Below are positions 1,458 through 45,041 of a stretch of DNA of 45,041 nucleotides, piece by piece. The stretch's first letter is position 1. Every line of letters begins with the position of its first letter. Where the stretch lies: the IMG/VR virus record IMGVR_UViG_2802429245_000013. One strand, 5' to 3'. The DNA comes from a virus. Its lineage: Duplodnaviria > Heunggongvirae > Uroviricota > Caudoviricetes. The notes under the pieces were generated by a model. The model searched no databases, had not been told where the DNA came from, and saw only the letters and a program-made list of their open reading frames with translations. The translations under genes and the position numbers were made by a program.

Positions 1458-2667
1458 ACTTGTTGACCTGAACCTGTGATGCCACCGTTGAAAAATAGGA
1501 ATAGGTATCGCCATAAACCAGGCTTGTGTCTTTTGCCGGAAGAACAATATGGCCGTTAATACCAATGCTCACACTGATTGTTGAGATCAACGTCGCATCA
1601 ACCAGCAATTTTACGGAGCTGGTAAAAATATCCTGGATTCGCAGCAGATTTATCGGGTGACCGACTTCAATAGAATTGATGTAATCAGCAACGTTTTGCT
1701 GCACAGCCATAGCAATACCCGCCGGATCAACATAATCATCAGACACCGTGTTCCAGGTGATTAGCACCATGACGTTTTGTGATGACGGGATAACGAACGG
1801 CACCTGATAAACGTCCGGCGAAACGGTTATTGAAACCGTGCGTTTTTCCACTGCCGCACCGGATGGATTGCTAACATCGTTGGTCAGTTTCGAAATATCC
1901 GGTACAGATTTGTAAATCGCATAAGCCACATCATACGGATCACCGCCACCAACAACCGCAACCCATTTCCCCAACGACGACTGCCGGAAAGAAATCAGGT
2001 TTTCTCGCACACCGCTTACTGATTTGAGCATCGCTTTAAAGCAATCCGGTGTTCCCTGCACACCAAACATGCCGGACTCCATGACTTCGGCGCGGTATGA
2101 TGCCCACGTTTGCGCCTCCTGACCTGGCATCCCTGCGGTTAGGTTGGTGCATTTTACAGGCTGGTCTTTGGGTACTGATGTAATGACCTGCGTCACGGTC
2201 CCTTCCGGTACAGCCCATGAGCCTGACGTAGTGGCCACACAGTAGACTGGTTCAGTCTGCCCACTTTCCGGCACCACCGTATCGCGGGAAACCGCATACT
2301 GGTAGTTACCGTCTCCAACCACAAATCCTTTAGGGATACCAAACCCCGGCAACGCCTCAAACACCACGTATACCGCCGTATTTGTACTTAATCCCTTCTG
2401 TGCTCCATAAATGTTTCCGAGTTGCATCAGTAACGGAATATTTGCGCCGTATGGGCTTACGGAGTTAATAAGGTCCACCCGCGCCTGGTCTATTAATGCC
2501 AGCGCCCCGACAGCCGTGCTGGCAAGGTCTGTAATAAGTCCTGCCGGAAGGTTGGCTGTATATCCAGGTACTTTTTCAGCAACTCTGGTGATAAGATTCG
2601 CGAGCAAATCATTGGGTGGCGTAGGCTGCGCACCCGCACTGGTCATAGTAATTGGTATTTCAGACAT
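1441..2667 (-). CDS. Baseplate J-like protein (gp47/J family), 408 aa
   Basis: ORF track 1441..2667; size and position upstream of gpI-like and fibre genes in a contractile-tail baseplate cluster. Confidence 0.55.
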   Translation of the reverse strand: MSEIPITMTSAGAQPTPPNDLLANLITRVAEKVPGYTANLPAGLITDLASTAVGALALIDQARVDLINSVSPYGANIPLLMQLGNIYGAQKGLSTNTAVYVVFEALPGFGIPKGFVVGDGNYQYAVSRDTVVPESGQTEPVYCVATTSGSWAVPEGTVTQVITSVPKDQPVKCTNLTAGMPGQEAQTWASYRAEVMESGMFGVQGTPDCFKAMLKSVSGVRENLISFRQSSLGKWVAVVGGGDPYDVAYAIYKSVPDISKLTNDVSNPSGAAVEKRTVSITVSPDVYQVPFVIPSSQNVMVLITWNTVSDDYVDPAGIAMAVQQNVADYINSIEVGHPINLLRIQDIFTSSVKLLVDATLISTISVSIGINGHIVLPAKDTSLVYGDTYSYFSTVASQVQVNKYAISD

Positions 2668-2678
2668 ATCTACCCCAT

Positions 2679-2703
2679 AAAAAAACCGCCGAAGCGGTTT
2701 TAA
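2679..2703 (-). terminator. Rho-independent terminator of the moron gene (also usable on + strand)
   Basis: A-run then hairpin AACCGCCGAAGCGGTT then T-rich; on minus strand the hairpin is followed by TTTTTTT, immediately downstream of the 2710..3456 gene. Confidence 0.6.
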
Positions 2704-2709
2704 GTTAAC

Positions 2710-3456
2710 TTATTTTGCCTGTTTCATTTTTTCCACCCTCTCAAGCATTCTTTTTACATTTGATGGAGGATAGTTAAATTCATCGCCGTCTCCAAAAGAA
2801 ATTTTTATAGGCTTCATTTTCATAACCAATTCTTTCAGAACCGCTTTACCAATTTCAGTTTTTGGTACTATAAAACCATTTCCATACAAGCATGATTTAT
2901 AAGTTTTATAATATTCACCATTAATCAAAATTGGTGGATACTCTAATGGTCCATCAATTTGCACTGAATTATCGCAAAATCCATTGCCTTTAGATTTTGA
3001 AGCAATAAAAATAGCTATTGTCCCATCATCGCCATACATCAGGAATCTATTTTTACTAACACCTTCCAGTGGAGGTAATATTATCAGTGCACCATCAATA
3101 TACCATTCAGCGTAATTCTTTGATTCATTGATTATGTTCTCATTAATTTCATTTAAAGATGAATATTCCCTGAATGCATTAGAATACCATTGTCGAACAC
3201 ATGATTCTGTTTTGCACTTCTCTCTTTCATTCCACAAGTCTGAAACAATTTTTCTAAAAGCTTTCTTATCAGCGCTCTCTAACTTTACTTTTTGATATAA
3301 AGAATTTAATTTATCATCAAGTTCAGATAATTCACTGTTGCTGCAAATTAACTTTTCAGAATATGATTTAGCTTTCGAGCAATCAAAAGATACCGCATTC
3401 GCAGTTCCGATTTGTAATAAAAAAGCAAACACTACAAATAATTTAAACTTAATCAT
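2710..3456 (-). CDS. Secreted moron protein: signal peptide plus DUF1311/LprI-like Cys-containing N-terminal domain, unknown C-terminal domain
   Basis: ORF track 248 aa; N-terminal hydrophobic leader MIKFKLFVVFAFLLQIGTANA; motif CSKAKSYSEKLICSNSELSELDDKLNSLYQKV...C...C; strong RBS AAGGAG 7 nt before ATG; visibly AT-rich relative to flanks. Confidence 0.6.
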   Translation of the reverse strand: MIKFKLFVVFAFLLQIGTANAVSFDCSKAKSYSEKLICSNSELSELDDKLNSLYQKVKLESADKKAFRKIVSDLWNEREKCKTESCVRQWYSNAFREYSSLNEINENIINESKNYAEWYIDGALIILPPLEGVSKNRFLMYGDDGTIAIFIASKSKGNGFCDNSVQIDGPLEYPPILINGEYYKTYKSCLYGNGFIVPKTEIGKAVLKELVMKMKPIKISFGDGDEFNYPPSNVKRMLERVEKMKQAK

Positions 3457-3659: not shown

Positions 3660-3788
3660 CCGAACAATGTCGGGAGGGCGACGAATACAACACCCGAAAG
3701 GGGAATAAGTCCGCGGCCTCACTGAGCCGTTTCGAACCTCCCGGCTCCACTCCGATAGTGGAAATTCGAAAAAATCAGTGAGGTCGTT

Positions 3789-26546: not shown

Positions 26547-26621
<75 letters not shown>

Positions 26622-26624
26622 ATA

Positions 26625-26700
<76 letters not shown>

Positions 26701-28554: not shown

Positions 28555-28731
28555 TCATTCCCGAACCACCTTGAAACCGAGCCTTTCCAGGTATTCAATG
28601 AATGCCTCGATAGATAAAATCACATGATCATCAGGAATTAACGTTGTGTAGATAACGTCTCCATTCTCAACGCGCACAGCATAGAGGCCATTTTCACTAA
28701 AAATTTCACCCAATTCTTCGATTTTCATCAT
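28555..28731 (-). CDS. Hypothetical protein, 58 aa
   Basis: Hand-found ORF below track cutoff: MMKIEELGEIFSENGLYAVRVENGDVIYTTLIPDDHVILSIEAFIEYLERLGFKVVRE; RBS AAGGA upstream. Confidence 0.35.
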   Translation of the reverse strand: MMKIEELGEIFSENGLYAVRVENGDVIYTTLIPDDHVILSIEAFIEYLERLGFKVVRE

Positions 28732-28914
28732 CAGAATCCTTCCAGATAAATAGCTCTCCCCTTCGGGGTCCGTCCTTCTTATCCTTGCGCGCTATTTAAG
28801 AGCCCACGATTCTAGCCGTGAAGACACACCAATCAACAGCAACAAGCCACCGAAATAACAAAATTAGTCACCCACATCAGTACAACCAGATGCATCATGC
28901 TCACCGAAAATAAA

Positions 28915-28939
28915 CAACAAAAAACCCGCCGAAGCGGGT
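28915..28939 (-). terminator. Rho-independent terminator at 3-prime end of hok transcript
   Basis: Hairpin ACCCGCCGAAGCGGGT; on minus strand followed by TTTTTTGTTGTTT; about 70 nt after hok stop. Confidence 0.6.
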
Positions 28940-29008
28940 TAAATGCGGGTGCGTTGAGGATGTCTGGCACATCAGAGGTGGCGAGGGATTTCTCCCCCGC
29001 CTGGTCTC

Positions 29009-29164
29009 TTACTCCTCAGGTTCGTAAGCTGTGAAGACAGCGACCTCCGTCTGGCCGGTTCGGATTCGTACCTCGCAGAGGTCTTTCCTCGTTACCAGTG
29101 CCGTCACTATGACGGTTAAACAGATGACGATCAAGGCGATTAACATCGCCTTTTGCTGCTTCAT
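29009..29164 (-). CDS. hok: Hok/Gef family type I toxin (HokD/RelF-like), 51 aa
   Basis: Translation MKQQKAMLIALIVICLTVIVTALVTRKDLCEVRIRTGQTEVAVFTAYEPEE is a canonical Hok-family sequence (single TM, conserved C-terminal periplasmic part). Confidence 0.85.
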   Translation of the reverse strand: MKQQKAMLIALIVICLTVIVTALVTRKDLCEVRIRTGQTEVAVFTAYEPEE

Positions 29165-29222
29165 AGCCTGCTTCTCCTTGCCTTTCGGCACGCAAGAGGC
29201 TAATCTTCAGTTGTCGAGACAT
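29016..29222 (-). CDS. mok: Mok-like overlapping reading frame (translation coupled to hok)
   Basis: ORF 29016..29312 in a different frame overlapping hok almost completely and ending 7 nt from hok stop, as in hok/mok/sok loci; start uncertain. Confidence 0.4.
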   Translation of the reverse strand: MSRQLKISLLRAERQGEAGYEAAKGDVNRLDRHLFNRHSDGTGNEERPLRGTNPNRPDGGRCLHSLRT

Positions 29223-29435
29223 AAGACTGGCCTCACTTCGATTTATAGTCGGGTGGGGCTTTTCTCTATCTGCCTTTTGGTGTTCATGCCCGAGGCAGAT
29301 AGCCTCAAGCACCCGCAGTAATTCTACTTAACTCTCCTTTTCCCGCAAACCGTTTTTATCCCCATCGGCAAATCGAATACACAACCAGCGCCACCGCCAG
29401 TGCAATTCCTACCGTTGTGAATGCTTCAGGCCAGG

Positions 29436-30032
29436 TCATCGTAAAATATCCTCCGCGCTTATCAGTCCGTTTCGCTTCAGGTAGACCATCGCCTTCTCCG
29501 GTAATTTGCAGTCCGGCTTCGCTTTCCTCAATTGGCTAACCAGTTGTTTAATCAGCATTGTTAATTCCCGTACCTGAACGTCCCCTTTGGTATCCTCATT
29601 GGTGAGGATACCATCGTCTTTCCCCTGAAGCATGGCGGCGCAGCAGGCGTTCCATGAAATTTCCTGAAGGGAACGACGAATCTGTGTGCTGCATATACTC
29701 CTCCCTGACTCCTGGCTGTTAAACCATGTTTCAAATTCCGGCACTACCGTCGCTGGCGGGGCGGTGTAAAGTGGAACAACTCGCCCTCCCCATTGCTTAA
29801 CACTACTCTCCGCGAACACTAAATGCTCAGTCCGATAATACCCGGGGGCATCAATATCTTTTCTTTCGCTATCCCACATGTAAACCACCGGCTCTGCTTC
29901 CAGCGATGCCAGTGCGATACGAAACACATTAGTAAGCAGGCTGTTTGAAGATTGGTTATCGTGCGCCGGATCGCTCAGGAAACCAGTGATGAATGATTTA
30001 ATTTCCGCGTTTTCTCTGGTAATAGTGGTCAT
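29436..30032 (-). CDS. Hypothetical protein, about 198 aa
   Basis: ORF 29436..30122 trimmed to Met whose ATG lies 1 nt after upstream stop (TGATATG). Confidence 0.4.
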   Translation of the reverse strand: MTTITRENAEIKSFITGFLSDPAHDNQSSNSLLTNVFRIALASLEAEPVVYMWDSERKDIDAPGYYRTEHLVFAESSVKQWGGRVVPLYTAPPATVVPEFETWFNSQESGRSICSTQIRRSLQEISWNACCAAMLQGKDDGILTNEDTKGDVQVRELTMLIKQLVSQLRKAKPDCKLPEKAMVYLKRNGLISAEDILR

Positions 30033-42501: not shown

Positions 42502-42696
42502 ATGCGGTATGAAAAAGTCAAACCATGTCCGTTTTGTGGTTGTCCATCAGTAACGGTGAAAGCCATTTCAGGATATTACCGCGCAAAGTGTAACGGATGC
42601 GAATCCCGAACCGGTTATGGTGGAAGTGAAAAAGAAGCACTCGAAAGATGGAATAAACGAACCACTGGAAATAATAATGGAGGTGTTCATGTATAA
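42502..42696 (+). CDS. ralR: RalR (Lar) restriction-alleviation protein / type I toxin, 64 aa
   Basis: Translation MRYEKVKPCPFCGCPSVTVKAISGYYRAKCNGCESRTGYGGSEKEALERWNKRTTGNNNGGVHV recognised as RalR. Confidence 0.8.
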   Translation: MRYEKVKPCPFCGCPSVTVKAISGYYRAKCNGCESRTGYGGSEKEALERWNKRTTGNNNGGVHV

Positions 42697-42877
42697 AATT
42701 ACCGCCACTATTGAAAAGGAAGGTGGCACTCCTACTAACTGGACAAGATATTCAAAATCTAAACTAACGAAATCAGAATGCGAAAAAATGCTCTCAGGGA
42801 AAAAAGAAGCAGGCGTTTCCAGAGAGCAGAAAGCAAAACTGATAAATTTTAATTGCGAGAAACTTCTGTCATCGTGA
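42689..42877 (+). CDS. ydaC: YdaC-like protein, 62 aa
   Basis: ORF 42617..42877 trimmed to MYKITATIEKEGGTPTNWTRYSK... with RBS GGAGG 5 nt upstream; overlaps ralR end. Confidence 0.55.
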   Translation: MYKITATIEKEGGTPTNWTRYSKSKLTKSECEKMLSGKKEAGVSREQKAKLINFNCEKLLSS

Positions 42878-44354: not shown

Positions 44355-44472
44355 AAAAAAGACCGGAATACAGAAATTCGAGTAAATTTCGGGGGATTTC
44401 GGGGAGATGCTTGCAACTAATTGATTTTAAATACAATTAAAAAGAGACCGAATACGATTCCTGTATTCGGTC
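44355..44472. repeat. att-region repeats: three copies of GACCGAATAC(A/G) (one inverted, forming a 10-bp-stem palindrome) plus tandem TTTCGGGG(G/A)
   Basis: 44361-44373 gaccggaatacag; 44446-44472 gaccgaatacgattcctgtattcggtc; 44386-44406 atttcgggggatttcggggag. Confidence 0.4.
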
Positions 44473-44616
44473 CAGGGAAATGGCTCTTGGGAGAGAGCCG
44501 TGCGCTAAAAGTTGGCATTAATGCAGGCTTAGTTGCCTTGCCTTTTAAGAATAGATGACGACGCCAGGTTTTCCAGTCCGCGCGTAAAGTGGTCAGAAAA
44601 AAAGCGCGTTTATCAT

Positions 44617-44699: not shown

Positions 44700-45041
44700 T
44701 TAACAGAGTCTCTCAGCTCTTTCAATAAACGGTGCCAGACTCACTTTTTCACCTGGTTTATTGGGATCATCAATCTGGATCACCGAAATGGGCTGGGCTT
44801 TAGTCTTCCCGCTGGCTACTTCCTTTTGTGCGATATCGTTTAAAGGATACTGTACCAGGGTACTTGGGTTAATGACATACAAAGCATTGCCCGGACGACA
44901 GGTCAGCATCACCTCTTCGCGATTAAACGCCCATTTGTCTTTACCCATTTCAAAACGGCTGACGGTAATCACCTGCGGAGCCGCCAACGCCGCTGCCGAA
45001 CTGGTGAGTAACAGAAACGCCAGAATACTTTTTTTCATCAT
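44700..45041 (-). CDS. Host small secreted protein with signal peptide, 113 aa (possibly YebY/DUF2511-like)
   Basis: ORF track; signal peptide [22 protein letters not shown]; lies outside prophage beyond the int-proximal att region; family name is recollection only. Confidence 0.45.

Follow-up and report, generated by a model that had tools for sequence, protein, structure and literature searches.

The minus strand between positions 28917 and 29348 of the window (the whole 45,041-nucleotide stretch analysed here, IMG/VR record IMGVR_UViG_2802429245_000013) very probably carries a complete canonical hok/mok/sok type I toxin module of the hokD/hokW subgroup, a moron that occupies the nin-equivalent part of a Rac-like lambdoid prophage in a non-coli Escherichia. 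A first-pass annotation of this DNA had called the locus a complete hok/mok-type type I locus, and we found every cis element of the plasmid R1 paradigm to be present and consistent with the others. The elements, their complementarity and their conservation are all present at the sequence level. The class of locus is already known, since PGAP annotates hokD and the related hokW-sokW has been characterised experimentally. The window adds to this class another intact hok/sok module from a lambdoid prophage.

Genes of the locus and their surroundings

The coding features, their ribosome-binding sites and the nearest upstream gene are as follows.

29009 to 29164, minus strand: hok toxin gene, 51 aa and a stop (open reading frame list; Pfam PF01848)
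29174 to 29179, minus strand: hok Shine-Dalgarno sequence AAGGAG (read from the sequence; first stretch in common with K-12 hokD)
29024 to 29026, minus strand: Tyr47 codon UAC within CUUACGAA, a TadA A-to-I editing context (read from the sequence)
29016 to 29222, minus strand: mok frame, 68 codons and a stop, overlapping hok in the +1 frame relative to it (open reading frame list)
29231 to 29234, minus strand: mok Shine-Dalgarno sequence GAGG, 8 nt upstream of the mok AUG
30032 to 29436, minus strand: 198-aa upstream neighbour (phrog_660, function not assigned in PHROGs; no Pfam family)

The Hok peptide, MKQQKAMLIALIVICLTVIVTALVTRKDLCEVRIRTGQTEVAVFTAYEPEE (window 29164 to 29009, minus strand), matches the Pfam family HOK_GEF (PF01848) with E=1.2e-23 and 82.9 bits against a cut-off of 22, and PHROG 251, "MokW-like host killing", with E=2.8e-33. 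Identity is 100% with K-12 HokD, 92% with HokW (phage 933W) and 42% with the Hok protein of plasmid R1. The Pfam match and the identity with K-12 HokD place it among the Hok/Gef-type toxins, which are about 50 aa long with an N-terminal transmembrane helix, and the description of the toxin as HokD/RelF-like in the first-pass annotation proved to be exact. K-12 HokD is described as toxic upon expression, where it served as a control (bioRxiv 10.1101/2025.08.07.668861), and editing of the hokD mRNA is described at the same Tyr-to-Cys position that is marked above (PMC12214031).

The mok frame runs from an ATG at 29222 to a stop at 29016, starting upstream of hok and overlapping it, which bears out the earlier suggestion of an overlapping mok-like frame. 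To place the locus among its relatives, we used an alignment of 61 distinct complete loci, drawn from the window, from E. coli chromosomes, from IMG/VR prophages and from two plasmids, one of them P1-like and the other IncFIB. The mok frame is open over 68-71 codons in 54 of these 61 loci. A weak match to DUF5431 begins at residue 31 of the longer mok ORF. By analogy with R1 and hokW-sokW, translation of hok is predicted to be coupled to that of mok.

The locus is flanked by replication genes on one side and a Q-like antiterminator on the other, and so the term "nin region" used in the first-pass annotation is correct. All of the neighbours named here are on the minus strand. Upstream of hok are a YdaS/cro-like gene, YdaT, an O-like gene, a DnaC-like loader, DUF1627 and two Ead/Ea22 genes, together with a Zn-ribbon gene, a 107-aa gene, the 198-aa gene and a 27-aa hydrophobic ORF. 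Downstream are a 58-aa gene, DUF1367, YbcO/DUF1364, a DUF1133/Q-like antiterminator, two tRNAs and a holin. The 198-aa gene is, as first noted, an unrelated upstream neighbour, and searches of Pfam and PHROGs found no function for it or for the 58-aa and 107-aa genes. The order 198-aa gene, hok, DUF1367, DUF1364 and DUF1133 recurs in E. coli JNEC-KY178. Among RefSeq neighbours nothing is annotated over the Sok region, and both mok and Sok are missing from the annotation.

The prophage itself has Rac-type features: RalA lies at 42695-42873, with RecT, Lar, Exc and Int adjoining, and the integration site is next to ryeA/sdsR-yebY. Identity of the yebY flank to each of 5426 complete E. coli genomes is only ~92%, which indicates that the host is an Escherichia outside E. 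coli proper. The integrase has exact matches in two NCBI assemblies.

The hok mRNA, its alternative folds and the Sok antisense RNA

The predicted hok transcript and its elements are listed below in the order of promoter, leader and 3' end.

29343 to 29348, minus strand: hok promoter -35 TTGCGG (read from the sequence; 16 nt upstream of the -10)
29321 to 29326, minus strand: hok promoter -10 TAGAAT (the conserved mRNA 5' end, GGGUGCUUGAGG, follows 6 nt downstream)
28917 to 29314, minus strand: predicted full-length hok mRNA, ~398 nt (5' end from the RF01794 start; 3' end from the intrinsic terminator)
29303 to 29314, minus strand: tac (translational activator element), mRNA nt 1-12, GGGUGCUUGAGG (folds, Rfam consensus, alignment)
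29255 to 29261, minus strand: ucb (upstream complementary box) AAGCCCC, mRNA nt 54-60 (folds)
29196 to 29200, minus strand: dcb (downstream complementary box) GCCUC (fold; Rfam consensus helix; invariant in 61 loci)
28980 to 29001, minus strand: 3'-UTR hairpin GGCGGGGGAGAAAUCCCUCGCC (minimum free energy fold)
28947 to 28959, minus strand: fbi (fold-back inhibition element) CCUCAACGCACCC, pairing with tac through 12 bp and one bulge
28917 to 28940, minus strand: intrinsic terminator, AACCCGCTTCGGCGGGTT and a T-run (terminator scan; 7-bp stem, GC-rich)

The Rfam family RF01794, which is named "sok", matches positions 29314 to 29159 on the minus strand over model positions 1-157, its full length, with 120.1 bits (E=2e-28) against a gathering threshold of 59 bits. 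Because the alignment stops at the hok AUG, this "sok" model represents the sense-strand hok leader. The conserved structured 5' leader of a hok mRNA is present in the window, and the start of the model sets the mRNA 5' end at 29314.

The hok promoter -35 block is conserved in 933W and STEC388 in the alignment. In unrelated upstream contexts, the place of the hok -10 is held at the same distance by TACAAT (locus L087) or TATAAT (the plasmid locus L088). A generic sigma-70 scan of 28700-29500 flagged neither the hok promoter nor the Sok promoter described below, only an unrelated site at 28836-28809, and the assignment of both promoters therefore rests on homology and on geometry and spacing. 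The hok promoter is predicted to be weak and constitutive, and it would yield the hok mRNA of ~398 nt. The elements lie at or very near the span of 28915-29330 first given for the locus, with the hok -35 falling just beyond its end.

At the other end of the transcript, the intrinsic terminator begins 68 nt past the hok stop, in good agreement with the terminator first placed about 70 nt after it. The 3'-UTR hairpin that precedes fbi shows compensatory changes within the alignment (columns 350-371). We also considered an IsrK-like identity for the 3' UTR. The model of the Hfq-binding sRNA IsrK (RF01394) scores 29.8 bits there, below its threshold of 50, and we found no Salmonella or Gifsy match to the hok 3' UTR; we read the region as a generic hairpin followed by a terminator.

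A 395-nt RNA (29314 to 28920) has a minimum free energy of -160.7 kcal/mol, with z=-6.9 relative to dinucleotide shuffles. Together with the full-length Rfam match, this fold argues that the locus is not a chance match. Metastable, closed and open conformations have been described for the hok mRNA of R1 (PMC9841398), and tac in the window would likewise have three alternative partners: a metastable hairpin of the nascent RNA, the 3' fbi in a closed form, and ucb in an open form from which fbi is absent. The first 45 nt fold into a metastable 5' hairpin of -19.1 kcal/mol in which tac pairs with nt 19-29. The minimum free energy structure of the full-length RNA is the closed fold, with tac paired to fbi and the mok Shine-Dalgarno sequence GAGG sequestered by ucb (the GCCCC box). 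When the leader is folded alone, tac is paired to ucb, as it is in the Rfam consensus. For RNA truncated before fbi, the unconstrained minimum free energy structure retains the metastable 5' hairpin and not the tac/ucb pairing, which can be forced at a cost of 2.6 kcal/mol over that minimum. With tac/ucb constrained, the truncated RNA forms a GAGGC/GCCUC stem between the mok Shine-Dalgarno region and dcb, and a small hairpin containing the mok AUG sits on top of it. We conclude that the long-range 5'-3' closure by tac and fbi and the alternative set of tac/ucb, SDmok/dcb and metastable hairpin are both represented in the predicted structures. The first-pass annotation had proposed folding the leader for tac-, ucb- and fbi-like elements, and all three were recovered.

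The consensus computed by RNAalifold from the 61 loci retains the tac/fbi helix and contains double changes at 18 of its 106 pairs, with the covariation support coming mostly from one or two distant loci. R1-type plasmid copies in the sample are damaged, one by IS150 in the leader (L085) and one by replacement of the leader (L086), and L088, a distant plasmid locus, was compared instead. There tac reads GGCGCUUGAGG and fbi reads CAAGCGCC, so that the U4-A pair becomes C-G. Among the near relatives sampled, tac, ucb and dcb are invariant. The tac/ucb and SDmok/dcb helices do not vary in the 61 loci and as a result give no covariation signal.

The elements assigned to the antisense RNA and to its target are the following.

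29178 to 29183, plus strand: Sok promoter -35 TTGCCT (read from the sequence; overlaps the hok Shine-Dalgarno sequence of the opposite strand)
29201 to 29206, plus strand: Sok promoter -10 TAATCT (same position as the sokW promoter; 17-nt spacer here)
~29213 to 29264, plus strand: predicted Sok antisense RNA, ~52 nt (homology with the annotated sokW of 933W; hairpin fold)
29207 to 29229, minus strand: Sok-recognition patch, the apex of the target hairpin including the mok AUG (complementary to the Sok 5' tail; entropy)

Sok had first been expected on the plus strand around 29200-29330. Homology with sokW upholds the strand and the placement but not the extent of 130 nt, as the predicted RNA covers only ~52 nt. 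Its predicted layout is a 17-nt single-stranded 5' tail, a terminator hairpin, GGCCUCACUUCGAUUUAUAGUCGGGUGGGGCU, with a stability of -19 to -23 kcal/mol, and then UUUUC; the terminator scan found a plus-strand terminator-like site overlapping Sok. The 5' tail is complementary to the mok start region, and the duplex of tail and target is calculated at 18 bp and -33.5 kcal/mol. The locus is therefore predicted to encode in cis a Sok RNA that has a promoter, a 5' tail and a terminator hairpin and lies over the mok start.

The Sok -35 is TTGCCT in 49 of the 61 aligned loci and TTGACC in 8, and the -10 is TAACCT in 47 and TAATCT, as in the window, in 10. The spacer is 17-18 nt in 57/61, and the arrangement of -35, spacer and -10 is conserved in the same number. 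TAATCT agrees with the -10 consensus at only three of six bases. For the sokW promoter, a mutation is reported to have abolished antitoxin activity, and sokW was detected on Northern blots (PMC8621323).

Prevalence, conservation and the recognition patch

In the Qin prophage of K-12 the gene order is relB-relE-hokD-rem-ydfU-Q gene, and the earlier statement that K-12 hokD sits beside relBE in a different prophage is accurate. K-12 hokD (relF, the third gene of relBEF) resembles the window in its identical Hok, in its position upstream of ydfU and a Q-type antiterminator, and in its 3' UTR, which including fbi and the terminator is 95.5% identical. In the alignment, homology between the two starts at the hok Shine-Dalgarno sequence (AGGAGAAGCAGGCTATG) and runs through the 3' UTR. 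In K-12 the 3' end of relE occupies all of the sequence upstream of the hok ribosome-binding site. The entire leader is thereby missing from K-12 hokD, and with it tac, ucb, the start of mok, and both the gene and the promoter -10 of Sok. In the account of PMC12214031, K-12 hokD lost canonical components through rearrangement and is deemed inactivated.

The relBEF arrangement, in which hok directly follows relE with no leader or Sok, is absent from the window, where no RelE homologue is adjacent and the leader is intact. Relatives of the locus are numerous. IMG/VR contains at least 576 relatives, and we took the best 80, each of which encodes a 100%-identical HokD. The leader is complete and includes tac in 76 of the 80; two are relE fusions, one has an interrupted leader and one could not be classified. 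Among the loci compared, the relE fusion was found only in K-12 and in those two (L036 and L040). Related DNA occurs in 4715 of the 5426 complete E. coli genomes, with a median of 2 copies per genome and a maximum of 10, and 3809 of the genomes contain at least 80% of the locus. Related loci are also found in 78 phage records, some of them annotated as hokW/mokW/sokW or as "phage maintenance protein". The prevalence of the complete stand-alone form (76/80; 3809/5426) indicates that detachment from relBE is the normal state. The first-pass annotation had described the window locus as "detached from relBE", which inverts the polarity: K-12 has a truncated relE fusion, whereas most relatives have the complete form. 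The textbook example, hokD of K-12, is a truncated derivative and not the reference state.

Although complete in sequence, the locus could be a hitch-hiking relic that is physiologically silent and makes no Hok under any natural condition, a proposal that has been made for chromosomal hok loci. Several observations are consistent with a relic. By consensus, the hok and Sok promoter hexamers are weak, and many copies are damaged, including the relE fusions of K-12, L036 and L040, an insertion in L081, IS150 in L085 and the replaced leader of L086. In addition, the chromosomal genes hokA, hokB and hokC are described as showing neither post-segregational killing nor a response to rifampicin (bioRxiv 10.1101/2025.08.07.668861). 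However, every regulatory element is intact in the window and conserved across 57-61 loci, and the CDS and 3' UTR are 98-99% identical in dozens of prophages, an identity that argues for purifying selection. Further, hokW-sokW, whose toxin is 92% identical, is reported to be active from its native prophage (PMC8621323). Because of the conservation, we consider a silent relic to be quite improbable and favor a functional module.

Variability in the locus is concentrated in mRNA nt 86-108 (29229-29207), whereas the hok CDS and 3' UTR keep the near-identity given above across loci. Mean column entropy is 0.6-0.8 in this patch and ~0-0.1 in the CDS and elsewhere, and the hypervariable 22 nt exist in 17-18 variants. 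Folding of the 17 variants one at a time gave, in almost every case, a small hairpin with the invariant mok AUG inside it. In the columns of the upper target stem, 72% of cells are paired across the 61 loci; column-wise covariation of this stem is uninformative because the hairpins of the variants sit in different registers. Next to the patch is a hairpin complementary to the Sok terminator. It has either a short form, as in the window, or a long form, as in 933W, and the two are linked by compensatory changes. The patch allele of the window is rare, occurring in 18 of the 5426 E. coli genomes, and another 590 genomes have the short hairpin with a different patch. Only two pairs of copies residing in the same genome were available, and one pair differs in the patch while the other is identical.

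Variability of the patch amid such near-identity is the pattern expected of a specificity determinant. The patch and the two types of Sok hairpin could, as a tentative reading of the sequences, form a specificity cassette under diversifying selection. If so, the hok/sok modules of co-resident prophages would be kept orthogonal, or a resident Sok would be unable to disarm the hok of an incoming phage. As the sole hypervariable part of the module, the patch could serve in tests of antisense specificity and of cross-talk between copies, of which a single E. coli genome may have up to 10.

Proposed role and comparison with known systems

By analogy with R1 and hokW-sokW, the full-length hok mRNA would be stable and inert. 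Slow trimming of its 3' end would strip fbi and allow the RNA to open. Abundant but unstable Sok would then use its 17-nt 5' tail to pair with the target hairpin, blocking translation of mok and of the coupled hok and triggering cleavage by RNase III. If Sok synthesis were halted, whether by transcription shut-off, by loss of the element or by prophage induction, the stored hok mRNA would be translated, and the 51-aa Hok would insert in the inner membrane and depolarise the cell.

The closest experimental precedent is hokW-sokW. HokW is described as toxic and as neutralised by sokW expressed from its own promoter, with both RNAs visible on Northern blots (PMC8621323). Upon RecA-dependent induction, sokW is reported to vanish and HokW to appear about 1 h before endolysin, and deletion of hokW-sokW to delay growth arrest by ~40 min and to halve phage yield (PMC8621323). 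On this analogy, the most likely role of the window module would be that Hok is made on prophage induction, advancing lysis and phage release. Prophage stabilisation and exclusion of other phages are possible as additional effects.

Each of these two effects could instead be the main function. Defence genes are frequent in prophage nin and moron regions, and the module might be mainly an abortive-infection or exclusion device, in which a virulent phage would stop transcription in the host, Sok would be lost by decay and Hok would kill the cell ahead of phage maturation. The R1 hok/sok locus on a multicopy plasmid is cited as lowering T4 plating by 42% and plaque size by ~85% (cited in PMC8621323), and hok was enriched in prophages in a recent survey (bioRxiv 10.1101/2025.08.07.668861). 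The R1 effect is weak, however, and was seen only at high copy number, and the same survey reports that hok is not enriched near defence systems (bioRxiv 10.1101/2025.08.07.668861). In the window, Pfam and PHROGs identified no defence gene among the neighbours, and the flanking genes are without assigned function. We think it unlikely that exclusion is the principal role.

Alternatively, the module could serve mainly for prophage addiction, such that cells from which the prophage has excised lose Sok first and are killed from stored hok mRNA. On plasmids, hok/sok classically serves this purpose (bioRxiv 10.1101/2025.08.07.668861), and "phage maintenance protein" is the name that GenBank annotators gave to the gene. 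All that addiction requires is an mRNA that is stable and a Sok that is not, and the sequence supports both. Nevertheless, the account in PMC8621323 describes no effect of the hokW-sokW deletion on growth when the prophage is not induced, and integrated prophages are rarely cured spontaneously, so selection for addiction would probably be weak. We doubt that addiction is the main function and retain the induction-linked role as the preferred reading.

The comparison with hokW/mokW/sokW of Stx2 phage 933W and Sakai prophage Sp5 (AF125520) also limits what can be carried over. The two loci share a 51-aa toxin, the mRNA 5' end, tac, ucb, dcb, fbi and the layout of the Sok promoter, and both are in lambdoid prophages. 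In contrast, the Sok terminator hairpin is of the long type in 933W (71-nt Sok) and of the short type in the window (~52 nt), the 22-nt Sok-recognition patch is completely different, and the downstream terminators differ. hokW also lies near the right end of the 933W genome, whereas the window copy is in the nin region, and because of this difference in position the induction-linked behavior of hokW may not transfer to the nin-region copy.

The hok/mok/sok (parB) locus of plasmid R1 has the same gene layout as the window, with Sok over the mok start, and matches the same Rfam family. The same alternative RNA conformations, metastable, closed through tac/fbi and open through tac/ucb, are described for R1 and predicted for the window locus. 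The two Hok proteins are only 42% identical. The tac sequence also differs, being GGGUGCUU in the window and GGCGCUU in loci of the R1 type, and fbi has changed to match. The R1 locus, which is the mechanistic paradigm, resides on a plasmid, whereas the window locus resides on a prophage.

Prophage boundary and other RNAs in the window

Apart from the hok locus, the window holds several RNA features, and its right-hand end runs into host sequence:

3669-3753, plus strand: Rfam match to sRNA-Xcc1 in the late region (score 72 bits, threshold 53)
26550-26700, minus strand: two tRNA genes, flanked by the Q-like gene and the holin gene
42695-42873, minus strand: RalA, another type I antitoxin RNA besides Sok (score 217.7 bits, threshold 170)
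44435-44579, both strands: host sRNAs RyeA/SraC and SdsR/RyeB
44700-45041: yebY flank

The RalR/RalA system is one of Rac-type prophages, and RalA is adjoined here by the RecT, Lar, Exc and Int genes. Exact matches to the integrase were found in GCA_002965265.1 and GCA_900195715.1. The prophage-chromosome junction is marked by RyeA/SraC, SdsR/RyeB and yebY. Because the flank carrying these host features shows only about 92% identity to every complete E. coli genome, the host is a non-coli Escherichia.

A small hydrophobic ORF between the 198-aa gene and hok

A 27-aa hydrophobic ORF lies between hok and its upstream neighbor, a 198-aa gene:

29356-29439, minus strand: 27-aa ORF, MTWPEAFTTVGIALAVALVVYSICRWG

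Its ATG overlaps the stop codon of the 198-aa gene in the sequence ATGA, and 8 nt separate its end from the hok -35 element. The ORF had no annotation in RefSeq neighbors and no PHROG match. By tblastn across 84 hok loci, it was found directly 5' of hok in 32, including that of the Stx2 phage 933W, and the genes preceding it differed between loci. Both start and stop were retained in 17 of the 20 distinct versions, and variable columns numbered 18/19/26 at codon positions one, two and three, a pattern that hints weakly at coding constraint.

The hok coding sequence and its 3' region

Three features were located in or just beyond the toxin gene:

29024-29026, minus strand: hok Tyr47 codon UAC, within CUUACGAA
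28919-29000, minus strand: hok 3' UTR, with a sub-threshold Rfam match to IsrK
28809-28836, minus strand: promoter-like site, TTGATT-16-TAGAAT, matching the consensus at 9 of 12 bases

IsrK is an sRNA of Salmonella Gifsy-1. We rejected this identity for the hok 3' UTR because the score fell below threshold (29.8 bits against 50, E=3.7e-4) and none of the Salmonella phages matched the UTR; the similarity probably reflects a generic hairpin plus terminator. The promoter-like site lies just 3' of the hok terminator and 5' of a 58-aa ORF (28555-28731). Within the coding sequence, the motif around Tyr47 was kept in all 61 aligned loci and corresponds to the tRNA-Arg-like setting where hokD mRNA was reported to undergo A-to-I editing by TadA (Tyr to Cys) at about 6% (PMC12214031).

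Variation in the recognition patch, the leader and mok

The Sok tail/mok AUG target hairpin contains a hypervariable patch:

29207-29229, minus strand: 22-nt patch (alignment A2, columns about 117-142)

At least 17 alleles of this patch occur among hokD loci that are otherwise near-identical, and 18 of 5426 E. coli genomes share the window's allele. Leader insertions inactivate hok loci in two examples. In L081 (IMGVR_UViG_2548876852_000004, 1731-3000), a 1.2-kb insert splits the 5' element tac from the remainder, and L085 (NZ_CP141206.1), which is of the R1 type, has IS150 directly next to the Sok target. A 1-nt insertion cuts mok to 19 codons (GGTCAAGG variant) in 7 of the 61 aligned loci (L006, L016, L025, L028, L042, L061 and L082). 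The UGA stop of the shortened frame shares bases with the hok AUG, as AUGA, a coupling geometry unlike that of the usual 68-70-codon mok.
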